Shown: positions 19,871 through 62,990 of the stretch, piece after piece
How the letters are laid out: every line of letters begins with the position of its first letter
Position numbering within the stretch: position 1 is the first letter of the stretch
Assembly: GCA_963702095.1 (NCBI GenBank)
Contig: OY969706.1
Location: forward strand, 1,280,001 to 1,344,000
Reading direction: 5' to 3'
Source of the DNA: Candidatus Bathyarchaeota archaeon
GTDB lineage: Archaea; Thermoproteota; Bathyarchaeia; Bathyarchaeales; Bathycorpusculaceae
Length of the DNA: 64,000 nt
The notes under the pieces: model-generated
Database searches by the model: none
Told to the model about the DNA's origin: nothing
What the model saw: the letters and a program-made list of their open reading frames with translations, nothing else
Made by a program: the position numbers and the translations under genes

Positions 19871-20049
19871 TTTCTCTTTATGCGGGTGTGGCGGTTTGTG
19901 GGGTGCCACAAGACGGCAACTGAGGGCGGTTGCTTTTTTTGGAGGCTTTGCGTTTCGGCGTCTGTTTCGGTGTGGGAAAGCTAATTTCTTCCACATGCGG
20001 TACATGGCTCCATGCAGAAGCGGACGCGTGTGGATGTGGAAGCATGTAT
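19871..20049 (-). repeat. R1 dispersed structured repeat, copy D
   Basis: Reverse complement aligns to 47631-47810 with one 1-nt deletion. Confidence 0.9.
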
Positions 20050-20185
20050 CCTCTATTTTGCGGGAATCAACCACTTTTAATCCATTGACATGGAAAAAAC
20101 AGGTCCGCGCGGGCCTATCTGAACAAAAATTTTTTAAATGATCAGCAAGTTAGTGGTAACCAGCATTTTAGGAGAGGAAAAAACC

Positions 20186-20590
20186 TTGGACATTGCATCC
20201 TTGCTGATAGGACTCATAATCAACGTTATCTTCTGGATTATCGCGGTGGCTCCGGCACTCTGGATTTCAGGCAGGCTTTTAGCGGGCAAACATAACGCAA
20301 GATTTACCGACGCACTCTGGATAGTCTTAATTGGAACGGTTGTTTTCTATTTCTTCAACTACTTCGTGGGAAGCTTCTTCGAAAGCGGCATCATATGGAC
20401 TTTGCTGTCTTACTTTATTCTGCTGGTGATATGGCTGGCTTTAGTTAAGCATTTCTTTGACTGTGGCTGGCTCAAAGCATTAGTGATAAGCATCATAGCA
20501 ATAATAATCGCAGTAATAATTTGGGTAATTATCTTGTTTATACTGGGATTGATTGGATTGAGCTTAAGCGGGCTCCCCAACCTAATGTAG
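20186..20590 (+). CDS. Membrane hypothetical protein
   Basis: GGAGAGG followed by a TTG start; four TM segments. Confidence 0.7.
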   Translation: MDIASLLIGLIINVIFWIIAVAPALWISGRLLAGKHNARFTDALWIVLIGTVVFYFFNYFVGSFFESGIIWTLLSYFILLVIWLALVKHFFDCGWLKALVISIIAIIIAVIIWVIILFILGLIGLSLSGLPNLM

Positions 20591-20775
20591 ATGATGAATT
20601 ACCTCTAACCCAACTTTTTTATTTCCAGATAAATGAAAACGAAGCCGCATAATTGCATTGCAAAATAAAACAAACGTCTTGCTTTGCCTTCAGTTATTTT
20701 GCATAGAAACGCCCTGCATGCACATGAGGGATGTTTAGAAAAAAAACAAAAAAAGAAAAGAAAGGATTGTTTGAT

Positions 20776-23730: not shown

Positions 23731-26483
23731 TCAACGCTTTCCCTTCCGTGAAGTAAGCCATTTGCCGACTTCTATGCCTGTGAAAACTAGGGCGGCGTAG
23801 AGAGCAGCGACACCCCAATCGATGAGTTCAGGAGTATGCACATCAAATAGTGACTGCAAGCCCGGCACATAGAGTACGATTAACTGTAAAGCGAATGATG
23901 AGAGCACTGCTATCCATAGGAACTTGTTCTTGAATGGCCCAACTTTGAGGATGGGGTATTTGAAGGACCGCGCCGATATGGCTATCGTTAATTCTATCAT
24001 AACCATGGCGGTGAAGAGTTGTGTTCGCGCTTCGAGCAGCTGGAACTCGCTTTCCCATGGCAGATGCGAGAAGAATGCAAGTAGCAGCATAATGCTTGTG
24101 ATAATAGGTACCACTGTCAAGTAGACTTTGACGTCTCGGGTGAATACGCTTTCGTTTGGTTTGCGGGGTTTGCGCTCCATCAAGTCTGGGTCTCCGGGGT
24201 CTACGCCTAACGCGATGGCGGGTAACCCGTCTGTGACGAGGTTAATCCACAGTATCTGCACCGCTGTTAAAGCGATAGCTGCGCTGCTGACCATCTCCAC
24301 ATCTGAACCAGGGGAGAGCCAGGCAGCAAGCGTGGGTACACTGACAACGGCGATGAACATGACTAGAATTTCCATTATGTTGCATTGGAGGAGGTATGTT
24401 AGGTATTTCTTGATGTTGTCGTAGATTTCTCTGCCTTCGCGAACCGCTTTAACGATGCTGGCAAAGTTGTCGTCTGCTAACACCATGTCAGCGGCTTCTT
24501 TGGTGACTTCGGTGCCTGAGATGCCCATGGCGATGCCGATGTCACTCATTTTCAGTGCGGGAGCATCGTTGACGCCGTCTCCGGTCATGGCAACGACCTG
24601 CTGCTTTTTCTTCCAAGCAGTTACAATGCGGGATTTATGTTCAGGCGCAACACGTGCGTAGATAACTACGTTTTCAACGACTGCTTCGAGTTGTTCAGTA
24701 GTCATGTTTTCAAGGTCTTCGCCTGTTAGCACCTGCCCCTCTTCGACGTTTTCGCCGATGAGGGTGAGTTCTTTTGCGACGGCTGTAGCGGTTAATTTGT
24801 GGTCGCCGGTTATCATAACGACGCGGATGCCGGCTCTGCGGCAAATTCCAATGGCGTCTTTGACTTCTTGGCGTGGCGGATCAATCATGCTCATGATGCC
24901 GACGAAGACAAAGCCGTGTTCAAACTCTTCAGTGAATTCTTCTAAGCCCTCAGGTAATTCTTTGTATGCAAATCCGAGGTTGCGAAGCGCCAGTTTAGCC
25001 ATATCCTCTGTGACTTGGCAATGTTCTTTGGCGGTCTTTTCAGTTAAGGGTTGGACTTTACCGTCTAGGAGGATACTGCTGCATTTTTCTAAGACGATTT
25101 CTGGGGCTCCCTTCATGTAGGCTACGCGTTTGTTGCCGACTGCATGTATCGTTGTCATGCGTTTGCGTTCTGAGGAGAAGGGGACTTCGGCGATGCGTTC
25201 TTCTTGGCGGTCGAGGGCGGCTTTTTTGATGCCTGCTTTTTCGGCGACAACAACTAAGGCGCCTTCTGTGGGGTCGCCTTTAACTGTCCACTTGTTGTTT
25301 TTGGGGTCTCTCTCAAGGGCAGAGTCATTGCATAACACACTGATTTTTAACAGGTTCTTTAGGCTGTCATGAGGGGTGTATTCTTTTTCGTCTAGGCGGA
25401 ATTCTCCTTTGGGTTCATAGCCTATGCCTGTGACTTTAACGGATTTGCCGTCCACGTAGATGCGTTGGACTGTCATTTCGCCTTTGGTGAGGGTGCCTGT
25501 TTTGTCGCTGCAGATTACGCTGGTGCTGCCAAGGGTTTCCACTGCTGGGAGCCGTTTGACGATGCTGTTGACTTTTGCCATGCGGTACATGCCGATGGCT
25601 AGTGCGCCTGTTATGATGGCGGGCAATGCTTCGGGGACAGCTGCAACTGCGAGGCTGACTGCCCAAAGAATCATGTCAACGACGGGGCGCTGCTCAACAA
25701 CTATACCGACAACGGCAACGCTTACGGCGATTATTACGGCTAGAATGCCTATCCATTTGCCGACGCTGCCCATGCGTTTCTCCAGCGGCGTCTGCTCTTG
25801 AGGTGCCGATTGAACCATCTGGGCGATTCTGCCGAACTCCGTTGTCATACCGGTGTTGGTGACTATTGCTTGCCCCTGCCATAGACAACGACGGTTCCAG
25901 AGAAAACCATGTTGCTTCGGTCGTTTAGCTGGGTATGTTCAGGTAAGGCTGCTGCGGATTTATCGACAGGCGCGGATTCGCCGGTTAGGGCTGCTTCGTC
26001 GGTTTTCATAGTAAATACTTCTAGGAGCCTTGCATCAGCGGGGATTCGGTCACCAGTATAGAGAAGGATGATGTCTCCGGGAACAAGGTCTTTGGCAGGG
26101 ATTTTTGTTTCTTCGCCATCACGGATTACAATTGCTGTGGGTGCAGCCATTTTTTTGAGGGCTTCAACTGCTTTTTCACTGCGGTATTCCTGGGTGAACC
26201 CCAAGATTGCGCTGGCGATGACGATGGCTAAGATGATTAGGGCATCGGTTACTTCATGGACCGCGAAGGACAGCGCAATGGCGAAAAGCAGGATAATCAT
26301 GAGTACGTTTGTGAATTGGCCCAGAAATAGCCTCCAGGCGGGTTTGCCTTTTTCTTTTTTAAGTTCGTTTGGACCGTACACTGTTAGGCGTTGCTTTACG
26401 TCTTCTGCTGTTAAGCCGTTGTCGGTTACTTTGAGTTGAGCCATTGCTTCTTGCTGTGTTTGGCTATGCCAGGGTTTCACCAA
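23731..26483 (-). CDS. P2-type cation (Ca2+-like) transporting ATPase, one apparent frameshift near 25870
   Basis: TGES, PEAL, DKTGT, TGDGVNDAP; adding one A restores GRGKAIVTNTGM. Confidence 0.9.
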
Positions 26484-26674
26484 ATTTTCCCTTACTCCCT
26501 GTTATACGCTCAGCTACAAAGTATATAGGTTTTTAGATTTTTCATTTGTTATTAGAAAAAAAGTTGTGTTTAATTCATAAAAAAGGCAAATAAGTTATTT
26601 TTTCGGTTAAGCTGATAAAAATTGAAGCAGAGTCCATCAACTTCAGACTCTTAGTGCACTGCCCATGGAAAACA

Positions 26675-27217
26675 CTATTCAAGCACCAAATCGGGGTGCC
26701 GCATATCCCGGCTATGCACATACAACGACGCAGCCCCAATCAACAACACAACAACACCAAGCGTATAAAGCATCCAACCGAAACCCGCTCCAAAACTCAT
26801 AATTTGCTTCTGCCAAGTCCAAGGCATATCAACAACAGTCTGCAGTGGCCAAGCCCCCACCACCAAGTACCCGAACCCAAACACTACCAAAGCAATGGCG
26901 ACATATTGGTCGATGGCAGCACCCAAACGGAGCTTCTTGATGCTCATCACACAGAGCATTGCGGCACCGATGAGAAGCATGGGGAGGCTTGTGAGGAAGA
27001 ATATGGGGCTGATGGAGCTTCGGGGGAGCAGGCTATGAGTCGCCCAAGGCGGACAATCAAAGATGTCTTTCCCCCAGTCTGAGGGTGACCAGCCGCCCAT
27101 AATTACCACGGCAAGATAGAAAACGCCGAAAGCAGCCAAAAATATGGCCAGTGAAAGCTGGTGGTTTCTGACGTAGTCGGCTGCACGTTTGGTTAGAGAG
27201 GAGTAGGTTGGGCTCAT
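26675..27217 (-). CDS. Membrane hypothetical protein
   Basis: About four TM segments; start uncertain. Confidence 0.6.
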   Translation of the reverse strand: MSPTYSSLTKRAADYVRNHQLSLAIFLAAFGVFYLAVVIMGGWSPSDWGKDIFDCPPWATHSLLPRSSISPIFFLTSLPMLLIGAAMLCVMSIKKLRLGAAIDQYVAIALVVFGFGYLVVGAWPLQTVVDMPWTWQKQIMSFGAGFGWMLYTLGVVVLLIGAASLYVHSRDMRHPDLVLE

Positions 27218-27328
27218 CGATGGTCCTGTCTTGGCTATTGTACTGTCGCTTCTCCATATATCATTTTTCAAATCTAAGCAATGCAAAGGTTCTAAAGATT
27301 AGAGTGCACTCTATAAATTGTTTTTCAG

Positions 27329-28039
27329 GTGTTATGTGTGAAGTTTGAAACAACCCTACAGAGTATCATCCAGCGCACCCCAAACGTTACAAGTTACCGT
27401 TTTCCCCGTCCAACGGGACTCATGTATAAAGCAGGGCAATTCTTTTTTGTAACCCTCAAACACGGCGGCAAAGAAGTGACTCATCACTTCAGCTTCAGCA
27501 GCAGCCCTACCGAACCCCACCACATCGAATTCACTAAAAAACTCAGCGACAGCGAATACTCCGACGCACTCAGAGCCGAAAAAGTGGGGGATTGGGCTAG
27601 AATCGATGCGCCCTATGGACAATTCACTTTCGAGGGCGACTACCCCAAGATTGCGTTGCTGGGCGGAGGCATCGGAATAACGCCTTTCATGAGTATTTGT
27701 AGAAACGTCACCGACAAGGGACTCAACAGCAAGATTGTGCTGTTCTATGGTTGCAGAACCCCAACCGACATTGTGTTCAAAGAGGAATTCGAGGAATTAG
27801 CTAAACGCAACAGCAACCTTAAACTTGTCTTCACCGTCGGCGAAGCCACCCCCGATTGGAGGGGCGATACAGGCAACATAAACATGGAGAAGATAAAGCA
27901 GGAGCTACCAGACTACAAAGACTACATCTACTATACGTGTGGGCCGCCGGGGATGGTGAAAGCGATGCAGGCGCTCATAGCAAGCATGGGACTGCCCAAA
28001 GAGAAGCTGAAATTGGAATACTTTACGGGTTACACCTAA
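27329..28039 (+). CDS. FAD/NAD(P)-binding oxidoreductase (FNR family)
   Basis: GQF, FSFSSSP, GGGIGITP, CGPPGM. Confidence 0.9.
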   Translation: MLCVKFETTLQSIIQRTPNVTSYRFPRPTGLMYKAGQFFFVTLKHGGKEVTHHFSFSSSPTEPHHIEFTKKLSDSEYSDALRAEKVGDWARIDAPYGQFTFEGDYPKIALLGGGIGITPFMSICRNVTDKGLNSKIVLFYGCRTPTDIVFKEEFEELAKRNSNLKLVFTVGEATPDWRGDTGNINMEKIKQELPDYKDYIYYTCGPPGMVKAMQALIASMGLPKEKLKLEYFTGYT

Positions 28040-28071
28040 AACGACCGACCAGGGTTTGTGGCTGTTCTGCT

Positions 28072-28108
28072 TGTGGCGCATGATGGCGCCGTCACAGCCT
28101 TAGGGTAA
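28072..28108 (+). repeat. R2 hairpin repeat, copy 1
   Basis: TGTGGCG-CATGATGGCGC-CGTCACA-GCCTTAGGGTAA. Confidence 0.75.
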
Positions 28109-28161
28109 GTGCCCACAGTTTGGCTTTGCGGGTCATTGGGCACACAAGCGGAGAAAATGCC

Positions 28162-29175
28162 TCAAAGTTTTTTGAATTTTTTCTTTGATGGCCTGACTTG
28201 ATAATTATCAAAGAATTTCTTAACCAAACACTCAAAAACAGGCTTAAATTCTGCCGTTGACAATTCTGCAACTACATACTTCCCCTTATAGCGCACCCCA
28301 TAAACGGCGGTCTCCCTTAGAGGAGGCAATTTTAAATCATGAATAAACCCGCTTCGCCAGTCATAAATCGTTTTTATGGTATCCTTAAAGCATCTATCAA
28401 GCTTCTCCTTATCCGCCATGATGGGGCAGCTGGATTTACCGCGACAGTACCCTTGAACGCTGCCGTTAGTATAGCATTTCCAGTGCTCTTTTAGTTCAAA
28501 ACATGCTGGTAGAGCGGTCTCAGTTGTTTTAGCGGGATTTTTCTTGACATAGCTCCTAATTTCTTCCTCACCTGCGAAACTCTGAGCCGATAACTCCGGG
28601 ACCGCCTGCAGGTACTTAATTGATTTGATAAGTGCCTGTTTCTCCTCGGGGCACATTAGGGTTCTGAGGAAATTGGTGATTTTTGTGATACTGGCATATT
28701 CTTTGCTCCAGCGACCCTTTAGGCTGTCCATGAGCGATGCGAAATCCTTAAACTTCCCCTTTCTGAGCACTTGCAGGTATTCTGCGTCTACGTCTCTTCT
28801 GCTTACCCAATCGTAGAAGTCAACCCAGCCCTCAAAACCACTGGACTCTGCAGAAGCCAATTTTTCGAATACTGACATAACCATAATTAACATCGTGAAA
28901 GGCGGCATTTCCATAGTTTTGCTGCAGCTTGGGCAAGTTTGAGTTTTTTGGGGTGTACTACATTTGGGGCATGTGTAGAATTTGGCGGTGTTGTAGTAAT
29001 TGCCTACGTCGAGTAATAGGGCGGCGGTTTTTGGGTTTTTGAAGTTGTTTACGTATACGATGACGTCGTCAGTGGTGGGGAAGAGGTTGGGGAAGGCTTC
29101 TTGTGTTCTGTGTGTTAGTGCTTGTAGGTATGTTTTTGCTTCGGGGAGTGGGTAAATATCTTTTCTGATGTCCAT
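28162..29175 (-). CDS. Hypothetical protein with zinc ribbon and C-terminal HEPN-like RxxxxH motif
   Basis: CPKC..CPSC; IYDWRSGFIHD. Confidence 0.6.
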   Translation of the reverse strand: MDIRKDIYPLPEAKTYLQALTHRTQEAFPNLFPTTDDVIVYVNNFKNPKTAALLLDVGNYYNTAKFYTCPKCSTPQKTQTCPSCSKTMEMPPFTMLIMVMSVFEKLASAESSGFEGWVDFYDWVSRRDVDAEYLQVLRKGKFKDFASLMDSLKGRWSKEYASITKITNFLRTLMCPEEKQALIKSIKYLQAVPELSAQSFAGEEEIRSYVKKNPAKTTETALPACFELKEHWKCYTNGSVQGYCRGKSSCPIMADKEKLDRCFKDTIKTIYDWRSGFIHDLKLPPLRETAVYGVRYKGKYVVAELSTAEFKPVFECLVKKFFDNYQVRPSKKKFKKL

Positions 29176-29254
29176 TTTCTGGTCTTTCCCAACAGTGAGT
29201 TATTTTTGCAGCCTAAATAGGCTTAGCCCAACCAACTCTGGAACATATTCAAAA

Positions 29255-29294
29255 ATGGCGGGAGAGGATGCCTACGCCCTAGCCTTAGGGCAAA
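29255..29294 (+). repeat. R2 hairpin repeat, copy 2
   Basis: ATGGCGGGAGAGGATGCCTACGCCCTAGCCTTAGGGCAAA; gapless match to the reverse complement of 35538-35577. Confidence 0.75.
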
Positions 29295-29383
29295 TTTTTC
29301 AGGGTTCTCATTATTGAACAATTTAGTGTTGCTGTTATTTTCTAGTGATATGCTTTTATGTCCGAGTTAGGATTTGGTTTGCC

Positions 29384-29764
29384 ATGAAAGATCTAGCCCA
29401 TAAAATTTTGCTGGCTCTGACCTTAATAACTATCATTGGTGAAATAGCTTCTATTATCCTGTGGATAGCCAATCCTACGCTTCCGCCTGGTCAAGCACGT
29501 TTCACCCTGGTTGTCGATTACACTATAGCGGTCGCTAACGCTGCTGTCTTTTCGATTCTAAATATAGCAGCCTTTACCTTGATTTTTAAAAGAAATAAAT
29601 GGGGTCCGCTTTTCTTAATCGCAATTTCAATTGCCAATAGGGTAATTTCATCCACCTTCTTTATAGGCGGCGCTCATTTGATATTTATAGGATGGGCAGT
29701 TCTGCTGATTATTTTCGCATTACTCAGACTACAGAAAACTCCGAAGGAAAACCTAACTAGTTAA
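29384..29764 (+). CDS. Four-TM membrane protein (paralog of 47867-48292)
   Basis: Shared KW(G/A)P..IA....RV..T..F pattern. Confidence 0.7.
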   Translation: MKDLAHKILLALTLITIIGEIASIILWIANPTLPPGQARFTLVVDYTIAVANAAVFSILNIAAFTLIFKRNKWGPLFLIAISIANRVISSTFFIGGAHLIFIGWAVLLIIFALLRLQKTPKENLTS

Positions 29765-29793
29765 AATTTCCTTTTTGCTGGATACAAAACAGA

Positions 29794-30103
29794 GCCTTAG
29801 TTGCGAGGGGCCTTTAGGATAGTTACTTGATGTTATGCGGTTTCTTGTTCTATCCCTTGTGAGGGAGAAATGGAGTTAGGTCGAGGCGGCAACCCTGTGG
29901 TGCCCGCCAGAGATCAAGGGATCAAAGGCAGTCAGGTGCCACGCTGCTGCTATTCCTCAGATACCGTGGTTAATTCTATTCCGGGGGAAGAGGAAAAGCC
30001 AGGGCATGGTCCTTATTGTGGAGGCTGCCTATGGTTAGGCGACAAGGCGGTGTTTTAGGGGGATTCGCTGTTTTATCGCTCCCTCTTCAACACACCGTTT
30101 TTT
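29794..30103 (+). ncRNA. Candidate structured ncRNA (~310 nt)
   Basis: Closing stem GCCTTAGTTGC/GCGACAAGGC, many internal hairpins, terminal hairpin plus T6. Confidence 0.45.
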
Positions 30104-30111
30104 GACGTCTC

Positions 30112-30291
30112 TAACATATTTCCACATCCACACCGAGGCGATTTCAACATAGAGCCATGTATCCCCTGTGAAGAAAAACGCCTATTTCACACCGAAAAGG
30201 ACGCTGGAAACCAGCGCAACCCCAAAAAGCAATCGCCCCCTCAAGCAGTCTTGGGGTGCACCGTAAACCGCCACACCCACATAAAAAGAGA
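30112..30291 (+). repeat. R1 dispersed structured repeat, copy C
   Basis: Gapless alignment to 62811-62990. Confidence 0.9.
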
Positions 30292-30304
30292 GAGAATCAG
30301 TAGG

Positions 30305-30437
30305 AGCTTTCACTGGCGCTTGTCCACGCCACCCGCTTAAAGTCAAAGTTGGGCCTCCCGAGTTCACATAGAGACTACGGATAGGGTACATGTAAGGGGA
30401 TTTTACGCGTGCATCGCAAGCGATCTCAGTGAAAGCC
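30305..30437 (+). ncRNA. Candidate multibranch ncRNA (~133 nt)
   Basis: Perfect 10-bp terminal stem GCTTTCACTG/CAGTGAAAGC enclosing five hairpins. Confidence 0.55.
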
Positions 30438-30511
30438 AAATAAACCTAACGCACGATCGTTATTGTAGTTTACGGATGGAAAAGATAGATTAAACATTAA
30501 GGAAGGAGGGC

Positions 30512-30763
30512 TCATTTTTTGCGTGCTGCAATCAAACCGCGGCATTTATCGGCGTATTGGCAGTACTGGAGGCACACAGCGTTTTCGTCTGGTCGTTTCC
30601 ACTCGGCTCCACAGCTGGGACAGGTGGTTTTGTCTTCGTCGCTCCAAATTTCGATTTCGGCACCGCATACGTGGCAGTTGATGTAGGCAGGTTTTGGCTG
30701 CAATAAATCGCGTAGTCCAGGGCATGTTTCGGGGTTTTTAACGATTTTGTCACTAGAGCTCAA
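30512..30763 (-). CDS. Small Cys-rich zinc-ribbon/Fe-S protein
   Basis: CPG, CHVCG.EIEIWSDE, CPSCG, CLQYCQYADKC. Confidence 0.75.
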   Translation of the reverse strand: MSSSDKIVKNPETCPGLRDLLQPKPAYINCHVCGAEIEIWSDEDKTTCPSCGAEWKRPDENAVCLQYCQYADKCRGLIAARKK

Positions 30764-31388
30764 CGATGTCACCTCCAACTTTAACTTCAAACTCTCTAAC
30801 CGGCACCACTTTGCCTGAGCCTTCCAGCGCCTTGTTAACAGCCCACTTAAGCCCAGTGCAGCAGGGCACCTCCATATGCAAGACTTCTACGGCGGCGATG
30901 TTGTTTAACCGCAGGATTTCGGTGAGTTTAGCTGCGTAGGCGCGGGCGTCGTTGAATTTGGGGCAGCCGATTATGACGCGTTTTTCGGCGATCCAGTCTT
31001 GGAAGTTTTTGATGACTACGGGGGCGCAGTCGGCGGTGAGCATTAGGGTGGCGTTTTCGAAGAAGGGGGCTTTAGGCGGCACGAGGTCTAATTTGACGGG
31101 CCACTGCGGCTTCTGCGGAGTAGCGGTTGCTGCGGGTTTTGTTATTCCTTTGCTTTTTTGGTATTCGTGGACTTCTTTCTCGTCGAACGCGTCGGCTTCC
31201 CGCTCGGTAACTGTGATTGCGCCTTGGGGGCACTGTCCAAGGCATGCGCCTAGTCCGTCGCAGTAGGTGTCTTTGACGAGTTTGGCTTTGCCGTCTACGA
31301 TTTGGAGGGCGCCTTCGACGCATTTGGGGATGCATTGTCCGCATCCGGTGCATTTGCTTTCGTCTATTTGGACGATTTTTCTTTTCAT
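30753..31388 (-). CDS. 4Fe-4S dicluster domain protein
   Basis: CTGCGQC...C, CDGLGAC...CP, QWPVKL, MEVPCC. Confidence 0.88.
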   Translation of the reverse strand: MKRKIVQIDESKCTGCGQCIPKCVEGALQIVDGKAKLVKDTYCDGLGACLGQCPQGAITVTEREADAFDEKEVHEYQKSKGITKPAATATPQKPQWPVKLDLVPPKAPFFENATLMLTADCAPVVIKNFQDWIAEKRVIIGCPKFNDARAYAAKLTEILRLNNIAAVEVLHMEVPCCTGLKWAVNKALEGSGKVVPVREFEVKVGGDIVEL

Positions 31389-31709
31389 TTACTTCTCCTC
31401 TTTTAGGCATTTTCCGCCTGTTGGGCAGAATTTTTGGGCGTGGTTTTCGATGGCGGCGAATATGGGTGTCAGAGTTTCGCGGTTGGCGGTGTAGATGTGT
31501 TTTTTTCCTTCCAGCTGAATGGTTACGATGTTGCATGCAAGCAGCGGTTTGAGGTTGTGGCTAATCATGCTTTGTTCTTGTCCGAGTGCTTCTGCGAGTT
31601 CGCCTACGCTTAGGGGTTGTTTTAGGAGTTGTTCGATTGCGGCGAGGCGGGTGGGGTTTGCGAGGTTGCCGAAGAAGCGGTAGCAGATTTGGTTTAGGCT
31701 TTTCTTCAT
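31389..31709 (-). CDS. ArsR/SmtB family regulator
   Basis: LANPTRL, SVGELAEALG.EQS.ISH.L. Confidence 0.9.
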   Translation of the reverse strand: MKKSLNQICYRFFGNLANPTRLAAIEQLLKQPLSVGELAEALGQEQSMISHNLKPLLACNIVTIQLEGKKHIYTANRETLTPIFAAIENHAQKFCPTGGKCLKEEK

Positions 31710-31729
31710 TTTTTGCCCTTCAAGCGTTT

Positions 31730-31770
31730 ATATGAGTAATCATTCATATGTGGAATTATTCATATAAACC
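31730..31770. promoter_or_regulatory. Tandem ArsR/SmtB-like operator overlapping a TATA box
   Basis: ATATGA-N8-TCATAT (31730-31749) plus an overlapping imperfect second box (31746-31765), just upstream of the ArsR gene. Confidence 0.7.
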
Positions 31771-32025
31771 TGTTGATTAAAAACCACTCAGCCCTAAAGA
31801 AAAACTCGTTTTATAATTGGTATCGGTCAAAGTCTATGCCTGAACCCGTATCTGGCGTAACAAAATAGAAGACAGCCCCACATTTTCTGCAACAGCACTC
31901 TTGATTTCGCTGCTTTTCTATGTTGGCTGAACCGCATTTTGGGCAATGCAAATGAACCGACATTCACTGTACCTTCCTTGCTCTACGAACCACCCATGTT
32001 TAGTTAAATGTTGCCTAAAAAAGGA

Positions 32026-33900
32026 TTAGAGAGTAGAGGATTTTTTGGGTGCCCTGGCATGGCGTCGCAAGCCATAGACAAGTAAACCTGCGCTAATTAC
32101 CCCCGCCAAGATAATCGCCGTCCAGAGCCACCATTGCATCCACAGAGGCTCCGCCGATGCTTGGGCTGTGTTGCTCAGTTTAAGCTCGTCGATGGTGCAT
32201 ATTGCGTCATGTCCAATGTAGGTTTCAGTTGGCCGTACAATCGAGCCAGACGGGTTAGCTACTCCAGAGGTAACTTTGACCTCTTGTTCTTTGCCGTCAA
32301 CGTAGATGTGCATGCCTGTGGTTAAGCTGCGTGTAAAGACAACGTGAATCCACTGATTAAGGGGAACAACCGCCTGTGTGGTGACTATTTCGTTTAATCC
32401 TTCACTGGTCAACACATATCCGCGTAAGGCTCCAACGACTGGGGCGCTGCTGTTTTGTGGGGGCTCCCCGTTGAATGCTAAGCCAAAGGTGCGTGTTGGC
32501 AGGGCGTCAGTTGTTCGGAGGGCTTGAATGATGATATTGTTATAGGAAATTGGCTTGTAAGACTGGACATTAATCCATGCGTCGACTGTTACTTCTCCGG
32601 TGATTTCAAGACTGGGTGACTCGGGCACCATCACGTATTTGAGTCCATCAAAAGCTAAGGCTTGGCCATATTTGCCATTCACTGTTTGAGGAATGTAGGA
32701 GTTGTTGCCACTCATTGAGCCTAAGATGGCGGGGTTGTTGCCGGTTGAGTCAAGGGTTATGCCACTGGAGTCTATGGTATCAAATGACCATGATGCTACC
32801 AGCCCGTTGGATGGAACCGGCGGTGTGGGATTAGCTGGAGGCGCATCTCCCGGATTGGAGGTATAAAATTTTGTGGTTAGGGGATAATTATCTTGGGCAC
32901 CCGTGTAAACAGGGTAAGGAGTGTTGCCTATGCCTGATTCGCCAATTTCTGAGGCGTTAGGGTATTTGGTGTGGTAGTCGCTCCAGTAGTTACCGCCGCT
33001 TTGAGCGCCATTATCCCAGAACTCGATAGGTACAGATTCATTGACGTAGACAGAGTAGGTGTTGCCTACGAAGTTGTTGTGGTAGAAGGTATTGTTGTGT
33101 GGACCTGACAGCTGAGACGTGATGTAGACGCCCCATTTGTTCTGCGCTATATCGTTGGCTGCTACGATGTTATTTGAGGCGGCCAGCCAAATGCCTGATT
33201 CAGTGTTAGAGGAAAATGTGTTGCCAAATACCACCGAATAAGAAGACCCTAAACCTAGTCCTCTATAATTGTGCTCAACCGTGTTGTTTGTTACGGTGTT
33301 TGAGTAGCCCTGTAGGGCGATTCCTGAAACGGCGTTTCCGACTATGGTGTTGTTTGAGATTGTGTTGTAGGAGCCGCCGTAGAAGCGCATGCCATCTTTA
33401 AGGTTGTTTGCGATTGTGTTTCCAGTGATTTTGAGGTTGGACTGGACTGAGCAGAATATGCCCATGTAGTTGCCTTGGATGATGTTATTTTGAATTGAGC
33501 ATTGGTCCACGTTGATGATGAATCCTGTTGCGTAAAAATTGGAGTTTGTGTAGTTTTGGCTTTCAACAGTGAAGCCTTGGATGTTGGTGTTCTTTGCATT
33601 CAACACAATGACGCCACGGGCCCCCCTGTCAACGCCCCCTGATCCAATTAATACTGTGGTTTTGGCGTCTTGACCTATGATTGATATGGATTTGTTGACT
33701 TGCAGGTTTTCATAGTAAACGCCGCTTTGAACTGCTATAGTATCGCCGTCGGAGGCGTGACTGATCGCTTGGGCTATGGTGGAGTACTCCGTTGGAACAT
33801 TCAAAGTTTTTGAAGCAGAACTAAACTGTAAATTAATCAACCATACCGCTGAAAGTAAGATTGCAACTAACACTATGACTTTTTTGCCATTCGGATTCAT
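32026..33900 (-). CDS. Secreted NosD-like beta-helix plus LamG-like domain protein with C-terminal TM
   Basis: Asn-rich beta-helix repeats, GGNYWSDY, W.HVVFT..YVDG. Confidence 0.82.
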   Translation of the reverse strand: MNPNGKKVIVLVAILLSAVWLINLQFSSASKTLNVPTEYSTIAQAISHASDGDTIAVQSGVYYENLQVNKSISIIGQDAKTTVLIGSGGVDRGARGVIVLNAKNTNIQGFTVESQNYTNSNFYATGFIINVDQCSIQNNIIQGNYMGIFCSVQSNLKITGNTIANNLKDGMRFYGGSYNTISNNTIVGNAVSGIALQGYSNTVTNNTVEHNYRGLGLGSSYSVVFGNTFSSNTESGIWLAASNNIVAANDIAQNKWGVYITSQLSGPHNNTFYHNNFVGNTYSVYVNESVPIEFWDNGAQSGGNYWSDYHTKYPNASEIGESGIGNTPYPVYTGAQDNYPLTTKFYTSNPGDAPPANPTPPVPSNGLVASWSFDTIDSSGITLDSTGNNPAILGSMSGNNSYIPQTVNGKYGQALAFDGLKYVMVPESPSLEITGEVTVDAWINVQSYKPISYNNIIIQALRTTDALPTRTFGLAFNGEPPQNSSAPVVGALRGYVLTSEGLNEIVTTQAVVPLNQWIHVVFTRSLTTGMHIYVDGKEQEVKVTSGVANPSGSIVRPTETYIGHDAICTIDELKLSNTAQASAEPLWMQWWLWTAIILAGVISAGLLVYGLRRHARAPKKSSTL

Positions 33901-34056
33901 CCAATCACCTGCAACAATAGAGACGTGGTGAGATATTACTCTCCCCCCGAGAACGGAGTGTTCTCCTAACGGAACACAAAAAACTCGTTTTTTAAATGAG
34001 AAGGGATAGCTTTTTGAGTGTCTTCACTCATCTTTGGCACGTAAGGATGTAATGTT

Positions 34057-34188
34057 TTGTCTAAGAAAGCAAAGAAAGCAGAAGGATTAGAACAGCATAA
34101 GAAACTGCAAAGGGAAAAAGACCAGAAACGCAAAGCAAGAAAACAGGTTGCGCTTCCCTCCAAACACCAAGGTAAAGGCAAAAAGTAG
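34057..34188 (+). CDS. Small very basic protein (43 aa, not in ORF track)
   Basis: TTG start after AAGGA; MSKKAKKAEGLEQHKKLQREKDQKRKARKQVALPSKHQGKGKK. Confidence 0.55.
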   Translation: MSKKAKKAEGLEQHKKLQREKDQKRKARKQVALPSKHQGKGKK

Positions 34189-34317
34189 CCTTGCCATTTC
34201 CAGTAAATCATCTCATCCATTTTTTAAGCTAAAAATCGCTTTGTTGCGTTGTTATGCCCTGTTTGAGGAAGGTTTGGGGTCTGTCATTCGTTTTATTCTT
34301 CATCTTTCCCAATCAGA

Positions 34318-34354
34318 CTGGGACGGCGACATCATCCCCCGTCACAATAAGCGA
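34318..34354 (-). repeat. R2 hairpin repeat, copy 3
   Basis: 37 bp identical to 35550-35586. Confidence 0.9.
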
Positions 34355-34388
34355 CACCTCAACCAAATAAACCTTACAAAAGCGTTTC

Positions 34389-34568
34389 TCCCTCTTTGTG
34401 TGGGTGTGGAGTTTTACGGTGCAACACATGGTTGTTTGAGATGGGATTTGCTTTTTGCCAATGCAATGCTTTTCAGCGCCCGTTTCGGTGTGGGAAAATC
34501 GATTTTCACCACACGCCATACATTGCTCAATGCATAACCCGTTGCCATGTGGGTGTGAAAGCATGTTG
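34389..34568 (-). repeat. R1 dispersed structured repeat, copy E
   Basis: Reverse complement aligns without gaps to the other copies; most diverged. Confidence 0.85.
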
Positions 34569-34703
34569 AGTAAGCATAAAAATCCACGGGCATTTCGTTT
34601 ATGCTGAAATGTTGGAAGCGAGCAACCACAAGGGTTGCCGCCGACTAAGCACTCAGGATTTAACAAGTAAATTATATAACCAAACAAACAAACTTATTTA
34701 GTT

Positions 34704-35489
34704 ATGGAAAGAATGGGGAAATACCTCTCAATAGTCTTAGTTTTAATCATAGCATCATCTAGTTGTCTTATTGTCAAATCTGCTGATGCTCAATCAATAT
34801 CTAAACCATCTGCGCCAGAGTTTACAGTTAGATATGTTGATTATTCATATGATGTTCCACCAACTTATGGAATAGACCAGTTTACAGGAAAAGAAACAAT
34901 AGTAAAAAATGGCTATCATGTAGAGAATAGGTCTTTTGAATTCACCATAAGAAACCAACCTTATACGCCCTACGAGGATTCACAGGGTAACAATATCCAT
35001 CTTTTCTATAACCTAAGATTCAAAGGGCATTTCGGAGCCGAATGGATGTACTTCCCCTTTCTTGACAATGGACAAGGCGTTCGCAGATTTGCAGCAGGAC
35101 TATATCAGGTATATGACCCAGACCTCGCAGCATCAAATTCTGCCTTTACAATATTATTAGAAAGTATACCCACCCTATTTTATGACCTACAGGATTATGA
35201 CAAAATGCCAAAAATCGGCGATGAGGTTGATTTTCAAGTACAAGCTGCAATAGGATATGTTAGTTATGCAGGGGATGGTTTCTATTCTTTAGCAGGACAA
35301 TCAAGCAGTTGGAGTAACACACAAACAATAAAAATTTCTGCTGTTTCAGCCTCTGTTTCACATTCTCCAAATCCGACGCCAACGCCTTCAGTTCCAGAAT
35401 TTACCCAAGTTGCAGTGATTTCTTTCTTTGTTTCTCTGCCTCTCCTTGCCCTTCTTGTAAAAAAGAGGTTCTTGTCTAAAGATTTATAA
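34704..35489 (+). CDS. Secreted PEF-CTERM surface protein
   Basis: Signal peptide, KPSAPEFT, C-terminal VPEF + TM + KKR; visibly AT-rich. Confidence 0.8.
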   Translation: MERMGKYLSIVLVLIIASSSCLIVKSADAQSISKPSAPEFTVRYVDYSYDVPPTYGIDQFTGKETIVKNGYHVENRSFEFTIRNQPYTPYEDSQGNNIHLFYNLRFKGHFGAEWMYFPFLDNGQGVRRFAAGLYQVYDPDLAASNSAFTILLESIPTLFYDLQDYDKMPKIGDEVDFQVQAAIGYVSYAGDGFYSLAGQSSSWSNTQTIKISAVSASVSHSPNPTPTPSVPEFTQVAVISFFVSLPLLALLVKKRFLSKDL

Positions 35490-35537
35490 CTAGAAACGTA
35501 CAATGTAATTTCAGCAATTCGTCTCGAAAAAAATTAC

Positions 35538-35586
35538 TTTGCCCTAAGGCTGGGACGGCGACATCATCCCCCGTCACAATAAGCGA
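35538..35586 (-). repeat. R2 hairpin repeat, copy 4
   Basis: Reverse complement GTGACGGGGGATGATGTCGCCGTCCCAGCCTTAGGGCAAA. Confidence 0.9.
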
Positions 35587-35845
35587 ATCCTCAACTAAAG
35601 AAGGCAAATTCTAACTATGCTTTTTATCTTAAAAGCTGCTTTGCTTGTATTTTGTTCCTCAACCAACCTGCAACGCAACGCAGACACAGAAACCAAAACA
35701 GGTGTCGTAGTCAAACCCAAAGGTTGTTGTTGTGTATAGGGGATTTTCGGCAACAACAACTAAAGAAAAAAGCAAACGCCCAAACTTGATCCACTGCTTA
35801 AATAAGGGAGTTGCAGTCTTTTTCCCAGGCAAAGAAGGGATAAAC

Positions 35846-44602: not shown

Positions 44603-44603
44603 A

Positions 44604-46524: not shown

Positions 46525-47598
46525 ATGAGCCGCTTTACCATTAAGTCACCGGGTGTTTATGTTCAGAACCTACGAATTGGACCTCAACCCATCGAAGGCG
46601 TTCCGACAGCGACCGCCGCTTTTTTGGGGGAAACCCAGACGGGACCCACGTCGCCCACGCTGGTCACCAGTTGGCAGCAATACCAAGACGTATTCGGCGG
46701 TTTCTTCGGCATAGACAAGTACCTGCCTTATGCTGTTGAGGGCTTTTTTGGTAACGGCGGCAAACGCTGCTACATCTGCAAAGTAACTTGTGGTGATTTC
46801 GCTGGGGCTTTAGCCAAATTGGAGCCAATCGAAGAAGTATCCCTTCTGTACGCGCCAAACGCACAAGCCACCCCAAACCTCTGCAACATGCTCATTTCTC
46901 ATTGCGAGCGGCTCAAGCGGTTTTGCATCGTCGATTCACTAAAGGGCGAGGCACCATCAGAAGTTACAAAGCCACAGGCATCCGCCCATGCAGCCCTGTA
47001 TTATCCATGGATTTACGTTTTTCATGATGGCCAGAAGTGTTTGGTTCCGCCCGGCGGATACGTTGCAGGTGTTTACGCTCGCACGGATATTGGGCGTGGA
47101 GTCCATAAGGCGCCAGCTAACGAAGTTGTCAACGGCGCGGTAGACGTAGAGTTTGCCATAAGCAAAAGTCAGGGGGACAGTCTAAACCCACTTGGAGTTA
47201 ACTGCATACGCAATCTGGAGGGCAGGGGCATCCTTGTTTGGGGTGACAGAACCCTCTCAAGCGACCCCGAATACAAGTACATTAACGTTGAGCGACTGCT
47301 GATTTACGTTGAGCAATCTATTAAGCGTGGCACCGAATGGGTGGTATTTGAGCCAGATGCAGAGTCAACATGGGCTAAGGTGAAGATGCAAGTGCAGAAT
47401 TTTCTAAATCAGACATGGCAAAGCGGCATGTTGATGGGCACTAAACCGCAGGAAGCCTATTTTGTGAAGTGTGACCGAACCACCATGACCCAAAACGACA
47501 TCGATAACGGACGCCTAAACATACTAGTCGGCGTAGCACCGGTTAAACCCGCAGAGTTCCTCATCGTAAGAGTAAATCAAAAGGCTATGTACCAATAG
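46525..47598 (+). CDS. Contractile phage tail sheath family protein (orphan)
   Basis: PGVY, GVHKAPAN, LN..GVNCIR, WG.RTL, YINV.RL, PVKPAEF. Confidence 0.9.
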   Translation: MSRFTIKSPGVYVQNLRIGPQPIEGVPTATAAFLGETQTGPTSPTLVTSWQQYQDVFGGFFGIDKYLPYAVEGFFGNGGKRCYICKVTCGDFAGALAKLEPIEEVSLLYAPNAQATPNLCNMLISHCERLKRFCIVDSLKGEAPSEVTKPQASAHAALYYPWIYVFHDGQKCLVPPGGYVAGVYARTDIGRGVHKAPANEVVNGAVDVEFAISKSQGDSLNPLGVNCIRNLEGRGILVWGDRTLSSDPEYKYINVERLLIYVEQSIKRGTEWVVFEPDAESTWAKVKMQVQNFLNQTWQSGMLMGTKPQEAYFVKCDRTTMTQNDIDNGRLNILVGVAPVKPAEFLIVRVNQKAMYQ

Positions 47599-47630
47599 TT
47601 CTCTCCTTTATCGGTAAGAAGAAGCAATCG

Positions 47631-47810
47631 ATACATAGTTTCACATCCACACCGCGTCCGCTTCTGCGTGGAGGCATGTACGGCGTGTGGAGAAAAATGG
47701 ATATCCCACACCGAAACAGAGGCTGAAAACCGTTGCAAACCCAAAAAGCAGTTGCATTCAGTTGCCGTCTTGTGGTGCCCTGTAAACCGCCACACCCACA
47801 TAAAGAGACA
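47631..47810 (+). repeat. R1 dispersed structured repeat, copy B
   Basis: Gapless; 35 mismatches in 170 nt against copy A by manual count. Confidence 0.92.
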
Positions 47811-47866
47811 AAGGAACAACTACTTAAACGGGCCAAGGGTAAAAATAAGAAAGTGTCGGCTTGTTC

Positions 47867-48292
47867 TCACGTTTGGGTTTTGATGGTTCGGTAGGCAAAG
47901 TAAATTATCATTATACTCCAAATTGTCGTAATTCCGATTGCAGTGCTGGGGAAGAACACGTAAGTTGCAAACACCCGTTGTGTTACGGTGAGTGCGATGG
48001 CGAGGTATGGTGCCCATTTTAGATTTCTTCGCAGTCCGAAGTATATTATTGCAAATACTGCTGCAGCCACGAGTGCTTCAGAGACGACGATTGTGAATCC
48101 CAACCGGTAAATGCTCCACTGCGTAGCTGGAATCAACCAGATGCCAACAGCTATTAGGTCCAAGATTATGTTTGCCAGAACAAGACGGCTCAGTGCCTTA
48201 TGCGGTTTGGCACCATACTTACGCGCCGCAATTACTACAAGTACAATAGCTAAAACCGTGAAGAAAATAAGCAAGATTTCGTCTAAACGCAC
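47867..48292 (-). CDS. Membrane protein (paralog of 29384-29764)
   Basis: Hydrophobic ORF with KWAPYLAIA...QRV; start uncertain. Confidence 0.65.
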   Translation of the reverse strand: MRLDEILLIFFTVLAIVLVVIAARKYGAKPHKALSRLVLANIILDLIAVGIWLIPATQWSIYRLGFTIVVSEALVAAAVFAIIYFGLRRNLKWAPYLAIALTVTQRVFATYVFFPSTAIGITTIWSIMIIYFAYRTIKTQT

Positions 48293-53525: not shown

Positions 53526-53529
53526 TTTC

Positions 53530-60192: not shown

Positions 60193-60195
60193 TCA

Positions 60196-62650
60196 CTACG
60201 TTTGCTTCTTCTTAATTACCCCTGCCAAAACCAAAGCCGTGGAAGCCACAATCAAAAGCAGCACCAAGACAAACGAAAACTCAGGCACTGTCGGCGTAGA
60301 TGACGGCTGGGTAATCGGTATATCCGTTGGGGTATTGACGGGTTGGGCTGGTGTCGGAGAAGATGTTGTGGTCGAAGTTGTCGGCGAAGTGGAGGCGTGT
60401 GGGTTTTGGGTTGCTTGGGGCAGTTGTAGAGTAACGGTGCAGCTGTATGGGACAGAAACAACGCCTGCGGTATCTTTGAATTCCACCGAAACCGTTTTGG
60501 CGCCATCGCCATCGGTCAGCATCCACTCTTTGAAGGGTGAGTAGGGCTCCCAACCTGTCCAGTCGCCGTCTTCGTTGGCAAATCGCATATTTGCCACTCC
60601 TGAAAGGGAATCCTCTGCGAAGAGGGATAGGCTGATTTGCCGTGTCTGGGTTTCTGTGACGCTGGGCGTTATTGAGCCTGTGGGAGCGGTCTTGTCCAGT
60701 TTAATGTTGGTTACGTTGACGCGGGGGAGTTTATAGAAGGTTTGTATCAGGGAGGTTCCAGAGGCTCCAATACGTCAAAGTGTTATCTGCGCCTTCGATG
60801 GTTATGGTGGGTTGCCCGTTTGCGGTCACGTTTTGGATGTCTTCGCCGTTTATTTGATAAAACGTCTCGTTTACCGCTGAGTCAGGCGCCAAGTTTATCG
60901 TGAAGTCGTCTGTATGCCACTGGTCTTGGCAGTCGTTGGCTACGATTGGCAATCGTGATAGGTTAACGGCAAAGTTGGCTGCTCCATCGTTTATCGTTAA
61001 GGTGTGTTTCCCCGCTGTTGTGATTGGAACAGTGATTGCAGTGTTAAAGCTGCCTGTGGCATCGACTGATGTGCTGGCGACGTTTACTCCATCCCAGAGC
61101 AGAGAAACCAAACCACTGCTTGGGTTGAACCATTGCCCCCTAATAGGCAAGTTATCACCGCTCTGCACCAACACTCCACTCGACAAATCAGTGCCGTTAC
61201 CGAACACCCCCTCTGCGGACACATTACCAAGCTGCGCTAAACCCCTACGGTATTCGACATAAGGCACAGTGGTGTTGTAGGCATATCCGTTGCTGTTGTC
61301 CACCGCACGAAAGACTATGTTATCGAAGAGTTGTGGGTTGTCGCCTGATGTGTTGTTTTGTAAAAGGTCGAGAGCATTCAGGCTGTAAGTAAAGTTTCCA
61401 GCGGTGGTTGCAATGTTGTTTGCTATAGTTGCCCATGACGAGGTAACTGGGTTGGCATAAGAGAGGTTCACTGAATCGCCCAAGAAACCTGAGCCGTTAA
61501 GTGTTATTGGTGTTCCCGCTGACCCCGAAGTAGGGGAAACGTAAAAGGATACTCCGAAATTAAATGTTAAGGGGCTGCCTAAACCTGTAACGCAGTCATA
61601 TCCTTGTGCGGCAGTGTATGCTCCGTTTGACCCGGAAACTATATCTCGGAAGTAGCTGGAATAGGTTGATGTTGCTTTCTGGTAAAGATTATTATTTATA
61701 GCAGAACACGCCAAGGCATGGATGGCAGCCCATTGAGGAGCACCAGCACTTGTGCCACCAATAGGATACCATAGGCCATCATAATAGACCGCCACCCCTG
61801 CACCAGCGTTGTAAGAGATATCAGGAACATAGCGTTTAGAGCCCGTTAACCCATAATCTCTCTGGTAATCAGGTATGGGTTCATACGCGCTAACGCCTCC
61901 ACCGCTGCCACTCCAACCTGTTTCTGAAACCGAGCCGTCACCATTAAAACTAAGCACCGTTCCTCCAACCGACACTACATTGGGCGAAACTGCCGGGTAA
62001 GTTATGCCTGCTCCGTCGTCTCCTGAAGAAGCGAAGAAAACAATACCTGGCTGGTCAAAATGATAATCCCACATTGCCTCATATGAAGGTTCATCTCCGA
62101 TAGTCCCCCAACTCATCGAAACCGCAACTACGTCTGGCTGACTTGTAGCGTAATCAATTGCTTGAAAAAGCGAGTTTGTATCAGCGCCTTTTGCTGTTAC
62201 CAATAGTATAGTTGCCTGAGGTGCGATGGCATGTGCCCACTCCACATCAAGACATGTCTCTTGAGGCCAGCTACTGCTTGGCGCTGTCGTTACTCCAGCC
62301 ATTTTGTGAACAATGAATTTGCCTGTACTATTATCTGGTAAACCATACTGATTACAGAAAACGGTATAATCGTCTAGAATTGTTGGCGTATCATAAGCGA
62401 CAATAATTGCTATTGTGCACCCGGCACCTCCTATTGAAGGCAGATTGTAGGCAGTTCTTATTTGGTTTGGAGAGTAGCCTTGGGGCGTAGAAGACCCGAT
62501 CAGAGGCGAAAAATGCATTGGGTGCACTAGCAAAATGTCTTGGGATGGCTCGGGCATTTCTTGTGAAGCCAGAGGCAGGGTTATAGAAATCAGTAAGAAT
62601 ATGATTGCTATGGCTGATATGGTTGGCTTGGCCGGGTTCACTATAATCAT
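60196..62650 (-). CDS. S53 (sedolisin-like) peptidase with Ig-like domains and PEF-CTERM, apparent frameshift near 60735
   Basis: E..LDVEW, SSGD.G, GGTSAGAP; the shifted frame continues as LDKTAPTGS...VPEF + TM. Confidence 0.85.
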
Positions 62651-62810
62651 TGTCCTGTTATGGTTGATTTGCCATGCCCAAATAACTGTTAGCTCTTACC
62701 TATGTAAAATGGCGTCAGCATTCTTTTATGCCTTATGAATTCCTAAGCTGTACTCTAAAAATCGCTTTACCGCTAATTAGTTTGTGATTAGTGTGAGGAA
62801 AAACCAGTCG

Positions 62811-62990
62811 ATACATGCCCCCACATACACATCCAGTCCGCTTCAACATAGAGGCATGCTGGGCGTGTGGAGAAAAACTCTTATGCCACACCGAAACAGA
62901 CGCCAAAAACCGTTGCAAACCAAAAAAGCAAACGCCATCACTTGCGGTCTTGCGGCACCCCCTAAACCGCCACACCCACATAAAGAAAGA
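62811..62990 (+). repeat. R1 dispersed structured repeat, copy A
   Basis: Gapless alignment with copies B, C and E. Confidence 0.92.

Follow-up and report, generated by a model that had tools for sequence, protein, structure and literature searches.

The bacterial extragenic repeats REP/BIME and ERIC have roles that are thought to involve protein binding or mRNA ends, and in the Bacillus cereus group, inverted ends, TTTAT target duplications or compensatory changes occur in several of the bcr1-bcr18 repeat families. Bathyarchaeia live in large numbers in sediments and soils and are difficult to culture, and thus their non-coding DNA is largely uncharted. Here we describe a repeat family found in a window of 64,000 nt from Candidatus Bathyarchaeota archaeon (G000:C1:1280001-1344000). 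G000 is our label for the genome that holds the window, a single contig of 2,937,366 bases that is 90% complete as judged by marker genes; G007 and G055 are relatives, and L-numbers refer to individual loci. The repeat family is real, large and confined to one Bathyarchaeia genus, and by the searches made it is apparently undescribed. Its places outlast neutral sequence similarity and its copies appear to be rewritten from one another, which is unusual for a prokaryotic repeat.

A sequence-only reading of the window had reported five full copies aligning almost without indels, and both alignment and nhmmer confirmed them: the five copies are nearly indel-free over about 180 aligned nt, with a mean column identity of 78% (220 columns, flanks included). 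A core model, made from the profile of the five copies and iterated, was run on the genome with nhmmer and gave 114 matches, 98 of which are at least 150 nt long (52 minus, 46 plus). A separate long model of 372 positions gave 125 matches. The density of one copy per 12 kb seen in the window was too high for the genome, which has one per 24-26 kb (114-125 matches in 2.94 Mb). The family makes up about 1% of the 2.9-Mb genome. There are 95 full-length copies, and 91 of them measure 171-181 nt; pairwise identity among the full-length copies averages 71.5% and stands at 82% at the 99th percentile.

The 3' end of the repeat is constant while its 5' end is variable. In 109 of the 125 long-model matches, the match stops at positions 359-371 of 372. 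The starts range from 5 to 319 (38 at positions 5-50, 22 at 61-109, 52 at 117-195 and 13 later), and the reach of the copies is about 190 nt (the 176-nt core preceded by an A-rich leader of 16 nt), some 260 nt or some 370 nt. The fixed 3' end reads …CCACACCCACATAAAGAGA plus an A-run, and its parts follow in the order of a TTGTGGC…GCCACA palindrome, CCCACATAAAGAGA and a short A-run. The palindrome (TTGTGGC-N12-GCCACA) is conserved and lies 14 nt inside the 3' end. On the 3' side, the core is followed by 4-6 mostly-A bases, positions +2 to +5 being 68-91% A. Upstream of the core, the A-rich leader (AAAAAGCAAAYGAT) is present in most copies, and about one third of the copies continue through a further 75 nt that is well conserved into a looser G/T-rich part, which contains a T-rich stretch and a AAAATTGCTTATAGGG box. 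Conservation within the core is bimodal: 73 of the 176 columns are at least 90% conserved, while 71 are below 80% and close to randomised. The conserved motifs are six CCACA/TGTGG sites, two arranged as TGTGG-N12-15-CCACA, and four or five A-tracts. The blocks that had been named as strongly conserved from the window copies are the best-conserved columns among the 95 full copies of the genome.

Like the sequence-only reading, we saw no terminal inverted repeats and no mobility gene near the window copies. When the 200 nt upstream was compared with the reverse-complemented core in the 95 copies, terminal inverted repeats were not found (mean z 0.56, no consistent position), and an inverted repeat of the G/T-rich 5' extension with the C/A-rich core was rejected by the same local alignment against shuffles. 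The flank profiles, which served as a check for target duplications, contained only A-rich runs belonging to the unit, with no filled/empty site pair to compare. The repeat is also not a decayed small gene family, because no frame is open across the copies and there is no three-base period: no reading frame is open in more than 23 of the 34 gapless copies, and the conservation of the three codon positions is 0.80/0.79/0.81, so that the codon-biased conservation expected of such a family was not seen. The consensus seems open because the C/A strand is poor in T and G. A small open reading frame (ORF) behind the GGAGGTGA…ATG motif of the long copies was rejected as well, since the frames differ between copies (by eye). 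Crude ORF calling nevertheless overlays 44 of the 95 copies with spurious ORFs of at least 90 aa, and given these, the repeat calls for practical caution in genome binning and annotation.

Within the genus, 28 of the 119 other species genomes carry the repeat (BLAST, E up to 1e-6), about a dozen of them with tens of candidates, and no match was found in 16 genomes that represent the order's other genera. The carriers are scattered over DNA identities of 69-86% to G000 in the family B DNA polymerase gene (PolB), with copy-free close relatives among them. An exact 20-mer of the 3' block was found in 24 stretches of the species-genome collection. The family profile matches 21 of them, all titled Bathyarchaeia, Bathyarchaeota or uncultured archaeon, and the three stretches without a profile match, one of them from a BRC1 bacterium, were taken as chance. 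The exact 20-mer had no match in virus contigs. A looser pattern gave 18 virus stretches, but none matched the family model beyond the pattern itself, and a link to viruses was rejected. We also withdrew the idea that distant species have only the 3' module in common, since the profile search finds longer copies where BLAST saw 40-70 nt. No Bathyarchaeia repeat family of this kind was found in a full-text literature search, the coverage of which stops short of subscription journals.

The repeat lacks the defining features of MITEs (miniature transposable elements with inverted repeats), of REP/RAYT elements, of IS200/IS605-derived elements and of retro-elements, although its shape resembles that of the last two. 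Like REP/BIME and ERIC, it has many intergenic, non-coding copies with palindromes, often after gene ends, and the family is kept across related species and occurs at rearrangement sites. REP and ERIC, however, are bacterial and do not have the constant 3' end and variable 5' reach of the archaeal repeat. REP units are 20-40 nt and come with a RAYT (Y1) transposase, and ERIC is an imperfect 127-bp palindrome, whereas the unit here is 190-370 nt, without an overall palindrome, and the genome has no match to PF01797. The bcr1-bcr18 repeats are 100-400 bp and belong to one species group, with some places conserved and some mobile, which is similar to what we found, but their inverted ends, TTTAT duplications and compensatory changes were not seen in the Bathyarchaeia repeat. 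MITEs such as SM of Sulfolobus and Correia of Neisseria are likewise short, non-coding, dispersed, of fairly fixed length, gene-less and patchy. In contrast to them, the repeat has no terminal inverted repeats, no visible target duplication and no related full-size insertion sequence (IS), and most of its copies are old and at conserved places. The repeat resembles IS200/IS605-derived palindrome-associated elements and Helitron/IS91-like rolling-circle elements in having no inverted ends, no visible target duplication and a conserved hairpin that lies a few bases within a fixed end, but the genome has no TnpA/TnpB, and the repeat shows neither an overall strand bias nor compensatory change in the hairpin. 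Finally, a constant 3' end, an A-rich tail, 5' truncations and a position at gene 3' ends are shared with retroposons similar to short interspersed elements and with the degenerate SIDER elements in Leishmania 3' untranslated regions (PMC2689281). The repeat differs from these in that no reverse transcriptase and no target duplications were seen and in that its host is a prokaryote.

The places of the copies were compared between G000 and two relatives, G007, the closest species compared (PolB 86% identical in DNA), and G055 (PolB 75%). Even where species have diverged widely, copies are found at shared positions beside the same gene on their 3' side. For 18 of the 31 G007 copies with a 3'-flank match, G000 has a same-orientation copy where one would be expected, and with the 5' flank the count is 12 of 28. 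The corresponding counts for G055 are 13 of 27 with the 3' flank and 2 of 23 with the 5' flank. In the pairwise alignments, homology extends from the first core base through the 3' flank, while the DNA 5' of the core is unrelated, and positional partners may differ in form, with the long extension in one of them only. In sequence, positional partners are little closer to each other than to random members of the family: G007 partners have an identity of 0.725 over all columns vs 0.696 for other copies (0.516 vs 0.466 in variable and 0.919 vs 0.909 in conserved columns), and for G055 the values are 0.695 vs 0.691 (0.478 vs 0.469 and 0.921 vs 0.909). An earlier set of 21 hand-picked pairs gave the same picture. 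When the 95 copies are ranked by similarity, the partner comes within the first ten for 6 of 16 pairs with G007 and for 3 of 10 with G055, and thus a weak trace of common descent remains. Between G000 and G007, the three codon positions are 92/95/73% identical, four-fold sites 67.6% (n = 11,260) and non-ORF positions in long alignments 83% (n = 10,567). Since the four-fold sites are still 67.6% identical, neutral true orthologues should keep far more similarity in the variable columns than the partners do. Either the variable columns may change several-fold faster than four-fold sites, or most copies may have been replaced since the split of G000 and G007.

The repeat also marks places where gene order changes between species. 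At four G007 loci (L094, L117, L109 and L091), the 5' flank of one G000 copy is joined to another copy and its 3' flank. Over 113 kb of contiguous G007 sequence, 5 of the 7 rearranged junctions carry a copy in either genome, in a small sample that was chosen near copies and not controlled. Elsewhere in G007, about 45 kb of contig C5 (1-45202, L073-L075) has no G000 match of at least 400 bp at 76% identity or more and adjoins a well-conserved collinear block.

Within the genome, six pairs of copies are 95-100% identical. Their high-identity blocks stop 2-18 nt past the core; blocks of the short unit begin at -2 to -16 and those of the medium unit at -59 to -84. The flanks of one pair, 571950/579615, which is 100% identical, are unrelated, and no short duplication common to them was seen by eye. 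Two pairs whose members are over 1 Mb apart, 1744498/593098 and 363671/2335391, have core identities of 98.9% and adjacent 5' extensions that are clearly less alike, indicating that an existing copy was overwritten over the core only. Six of the seven near pairs (3-31 kb apart) are inverted, and only ordinary genes were seen in the segments that four of these pairs enclose; the pairs are thus better explained by conversion of nearby inverted repeats than by transposition. A composite transposon made from the inverted pairs was rejected, since all 22 proteins scanned in and around the four segments (TFB, SUI1, CysRS and others) are of ordinary kinds, none of them a transposase. By a rough calculation, about 100 copies, each overwritten a few times per unit of synonymous divergence, would leave the G000/G007 partners scrambled and most within-genome pairs saturated. 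The same calculation predicts near-identical pairs on the order of ten at any one moment, and six were seen. One near-identical inverted pair adjoins a gene with an AbiJ N-terminal domain (abortive infection; G000:C1:1627619-1628479) and brackets a CbbQ-like AAA ATPase and a VWA protein.

We give about an even chance to the explanation that this is an old repeat, probably of mobile origin, that persists at fixed places, is overwritten by other copies via recombination and has motifs under selection. The family would have spread long ago through some mobile process. It would then have persisted by copies overwriting one another, through gene conversion or copy-and-replace between conserved end blocks, and mostly between nearby inverted copies. 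Recombination between copies would also reshuffle the DNA on their 5' side. Selection would maintain sequence motifs rather than a fold, and the six CCACA/TGTGG sites and phased A-tracts are most simply read as putative protein-binding sites. Since 73 columns are fixed though PolB differs by 25-30% across species, selection must act on some function, whether this serves the cell or the copying of the repeat itself.

Several points weigh against this explanation. A clean filled-versus-empty site was not found in the comparisons (L101 and L112 were rejected as empty sites, the DNA there being replaced or rearranged), and past mobility can thus be read only from the shape and the patchy spread (28/119). 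The gap between partner similarity and four-fold sites could partly reflect faster mutation of the repeat or an underestimated neutral divergence, and both neutral baselines were drawn only from BLAST-alignable stretches. Geometry would account for part of the closer association with the 3' flank, as spacers have a median length of 58 nt at the 3' end of the copies and of 160-190 nt at the 5' end. Overwriting alone cannot fix 73 columns across species, so a function must be assumed, and the protein-binding role of CCACA/TGTGG is a putative one. The count of rearranged junctions has no proper control. The repeat is of wider interest in that about 70 positions are fixed across species and neither a recognisable enzyme nor an RNA fold accounts for them. 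Should a protein bind the fixed motifs, the genome offers about 100 ready-made sites for finding it, and if the copies overwrite one another, they form a clean natural system for measuring archaeal gene conversion.

The sequence-only reading had taken length and structure to be under selection and had pointed to a structured multicopy non-coding RNA. Selection is supported at the level of sequence motifs, but not at that of structure. RNAalifold predicts the hairpins that had already been proposed. In 91 copies, however, the stems vary on one side only, with double changes at the rate of independent changes. The TGTGA/TCACA change, described as compensatory, is not covariation: the central pair concerned is GC in 69 of the 91 copies, GT in 8, AC in 8 and AT in 2, as independent changes predict. 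G-T pairs were said to favour the C/A-rich strand, but A-C mismatches outnumber G-T in three of the four hairpins and tie with it in one. Since A-C would be G-U on the opposite strand, there is no preference for the C/A strand. When every pair of columns was ranked by mutual information, the top pairs were not Watson-Crick, and no Watson-Crick helix emerged. For 25 pairs in 61 copies from two species, 88.4% of the cells are paired vs 88.3% after shuffling (a level attained by 165 of 500 shuffles), covariation scores 0.078 vs 0.078 (220 of 500), and 6 pairs have double changes vs 3.9 ± 1.2 (44 of 500). Covariation in this larger alignment is thus at the shuffled level, which is the outcome that the sequence-only reading itself had set against a structured RNA. 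A window copy (copy D, 47602..47813) showed no excess folding stability against 200 dinucleotide shuffles (z +0.25 on the plus and +0.93 on the minus strand), and 40 copies compared with simple shuffles gave mean z values of -1.9 and -1.3. Rfam had no match in the window at the gathering score, and at E up to 1 the sole match in four long-copy loci was a chance microRNA outside the repeat. The structured-RNA reading is not supported, and the proposed hairpins are conserved as sequence only.

The gene context of the 95 copies was taken from the repeat-masked genome and a crude ORF-based gene call. The copies lie in intergenic DNA, with the 3' end usually near the end of an opposite-strand gene. 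In 56 of the 95, the 3' end faces the 3' end of such a gene at a median gap of 58 nt, and the 5'-side gaps have medians of 163-193 nt. The copies might accordingly be read as a host cis-element at gene 3' ends, for instance a transcription terminator or an insulator. The G/T-rich strand is the continuation of the sense strand of the converging gene and has several oligo-T tracts (1.9 runs of five or more T, T5+, per copy vs 0.02 on the C/A strand), which would stop archaeal RNA polymerase. It would also suit a terminator that the copies remain beside the same gene and keep their conserved columns across species, and that divergent regions are under-used: 17 copies are in divergent, 30 in convergent and 48 in same-strand settings, compared with 244, 186 and 417 of the 847 intergenic regions longer than 200 nt in the genome. 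Between same-strand gene pairs, however, there is no orientation bias (26 in one orientation vs 22 in the other), and the T5+ runs are not better kept beside gene ends (1.90 per copy) than elsewhere (1.88). The stop-to-repeat spacers are not short of T5+ runs of their own either (12 of 36 observed vs 7.4 expected), and carriage by only 28 of the 119 other species would be odd for a basic signal, so we regard a terminator or insulator as unlikely. The opposite, C/A-rich strand could instead be that of an RNA gene family. Many long copies have a promoter-like box (AAAATTGCTTATAGGG after the T-rich stretch), and this strand is nearly free of T4+ runs (0.18 per copy). Without T-runs, transcription would continue into the 3' flank, to which the repeat is firmly linked, and would yield an RNA in which a conserved scaffold is joined to a stretch antisense to the neighbouring gene. 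At one G007 locus, the repeat end (CATAAAGACA) lies roughly where G000 has a TATA-like box upstream of the same gene. But the box was recognised by eye and from the archaeal consensus, the promoter-like region is reached by only about 38 of the 125 matches, and no covariation, no excess folding stability and no Rfam match were seen; we find the RNA-gene explanation improbable. A bolder form of it, which we think very improbable, has about 100 locus-specific "scaffold plus antisense guide" RNAs that would start at the long-copy box and be used by a protein reading CCACA/TGTGG. The same protein could then drive copy-over-copy replacement, a transposase-free, homing-like persistence. Sequencing runs for window positions 26000-35999 were three DNA runs (one wetland study, small shares) and no RNA run.

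The sequence-only reading had also offered a mobilised non-autonomous element. This is plausible and unproven: the shape, the patchy spread and the sharp-ended recent copies speak for it, while the missing enzyme and the missing clean empty site speak against it. There was no match to any known IS end that could be tested. That reading had advised looking for a Y1 transposase or a reverse transcriptase distributed together with the repeat; neither has a match in the genome. There were 0 matches each to Y1 (PF01797; control positive in 6 of 14 genomes) and to the TnpB zinc ribbon (PF07282), PF01385 not being searched, and 0 to the reverse transcriptase PF00078 (control positive in 3 of 14 genomes). 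The IS110 transposase and DDE_Tnp_1 (PF01548 and PF01609) also gave no genome match, with their controls working; in the search for the IS91 Y2 transposase the control was silent, and its blank result is uninformative. No high-copy IS was found, as the depth of self-megablast repeats of at least 300 bp never exceeds 2. For 13 large repeats the longest ORF was read by eye, with no Pfam scan, and none is transposase-like. Tyrosine recombinase (PF00589) has seven genome matches, and the one that was profiled, the best of them, was rejected as a co-distributed enzyme: it has relatives in 97 of 120 genomes and therefore does not track the repeat. Integron attC-type arrays were not seen, the copies being dispersed at one per 24-26 kb, in a survey that did not include an IntI-specific model. 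A non-autonomous transposon that is still active, moved by an unrecognised enzyme through a rolling-circle/HUH-type process or retro-copying, would yield a 3' end that is constant and has a hairpin some 14 nt within it, and a 5' reach that varies. A retroposon-like shape is indeed present, with its constant 3' end, A-rich tail and graded 5' starts. This 3'-anchored shape with an A-tail, the 100% identical pair with unrelated flanks and the patchy spread across the genus are all consistent with such a transposon, and elements of the IS200/IS605, IS91 and Helitron types also have no inverted terminal repeats. Its enzyme, however, would have to be other than Y1 transposase, TnpB, reverse transcriptase, IS110 and DDE_Tnp_1, all of which the genome lacks. 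Most near-identical pairs lie close together in inverted orientation, and in two pairs the shared part is the core without the extension, for which conversion is the better fit. The segments between the inverted pairs hold ordinary genes (0 of 22 proteins a transposase), many places are old, and the virus contigs have no real match. Ongoing transposition therefore seems to us a rather improbable account.

Other elements in the genome and genus were seen alongside the repeat. The profiled tyrosine recombinase belongs to a family of about 430 aa (L120, G000:C1:213221-214507), which is present in 97 of 120 genus genomes with up to 14 matches per genome and some copies with stop codons. This family suggests that integrating elements are common in the genus. 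G000 also has repeats of 1-1.8 kb in two or three copies (G000:C1:650490-652317, 1112431-1114259, 231969-233124 and others), which encode a protein of about 330 aa with a basic N-terminus resembling a helix-turn-helix and lie near recombinase-like ORFs of 500 aa (663814, 1066877, 1026947). They are probably integrated elements. The 150-kb stretches bearing them hold no copy of the repeat family. At G000:C1:2619882-2620452, a region set against L112, the 3' half of a tRNA gene is present a second time in degenerate form, about 230 nt away from the intact gene. It resembles a scar left by an integrated element; in G007, a repeat copy takes its place.

In the window, all five copies are short forms of the family with variable 5' reach, and their nhmmer E-values range from 6e-50 to 2e-39. 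The genes around them are ordinary archaeal genes, for family B DNA polymerase, aminoacyl-tRNA synthetase, transporters and others. Copy A (19866..20062, minus strand; core 19873-20047) consists of the leader, the 176-nt core and the A-rich tail, and it matches the core model at E 9e-45 and positions 171-368 of the 372 in the long model at E 4.7e-59. Copy B is at 30114..30294 on the plus strand (nhmmer core 30114-30289) and copy C at 34384..34571 on the minus strand (nhmmer core 34392-34566). Two variants described earlier exist but had been assigned to the wrong copies (labelled C and E): the TGTGA/TCACA form of the central palindrome is in copy B, which the sequence-only reading placed at 30112, and the GTGTGG-T-GAAAAT-CG-ATTTTC-CCACAC hairpin is in copy C, placed at 34389. 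At the place of copy B, G007 has a weaker copy (model positions 37-171; L089 10306-10437) directly beside the homologous 3' flank, and the block 3' of it matches window 30277-31781 at 88%. At the place of copy C, the G007 flanks match (34276-34379 and 34611-34648) with 93 bp between them, in which no copy was detected. Copy D (plus strand; nhmmer core 47633-47808) has about 30 nt of the 5' extension and sits within a 1.65-kb stretch (46602-48248) that is absent from G007. Copy E (62782..62995, plus strand; nhmmer core 62813-62986) ends about 10 nt from the stop of a class II aminoacyl-tRNA synthetase gene on the opposite strand (63000-63941). A fragment reported at 2542-2614 is a remnant indeed, but of smaller extent: a weak match of 41 nt at 2574..2614 on the plus strand, which corresponds to the initial 40 nt or so of the core (nhmmer restricted to the window; E 5.5e-4, positions 183-224 of the long model).

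The stretch around copy D lies in a region that is otherwise collinear with G007, where only 17 bp separate the flanks. Besides the copy, it contains most of a lone phage-tail-sheath-like gene (46519-47598) and an ORF of 141 aa without a Pfam match. The neighbours of the tail-sheath-like gene are ABC transporters and a NUDIX hydrolase, with no further tail genes. The stretch 31950-34276 carries a NosD/beta-helix and LamG-like gene (32026-33900) without a counterpart in syntenic G007, where the matching flanks are 17 bp apart. Another NosD-like gene, at G000 579922-581136, adjoins a further copy of the repeat. The window also has a member (14910-17630) of a large paralogous family of long secreted proteins with PQQ-like beta-propeller and Ig-like domains, which occurs at about 20 scattered places in G000. 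The copies of this family are 64-71% identical in DNA, and further members are at L089 2300-5200 and L090 11900-14600.

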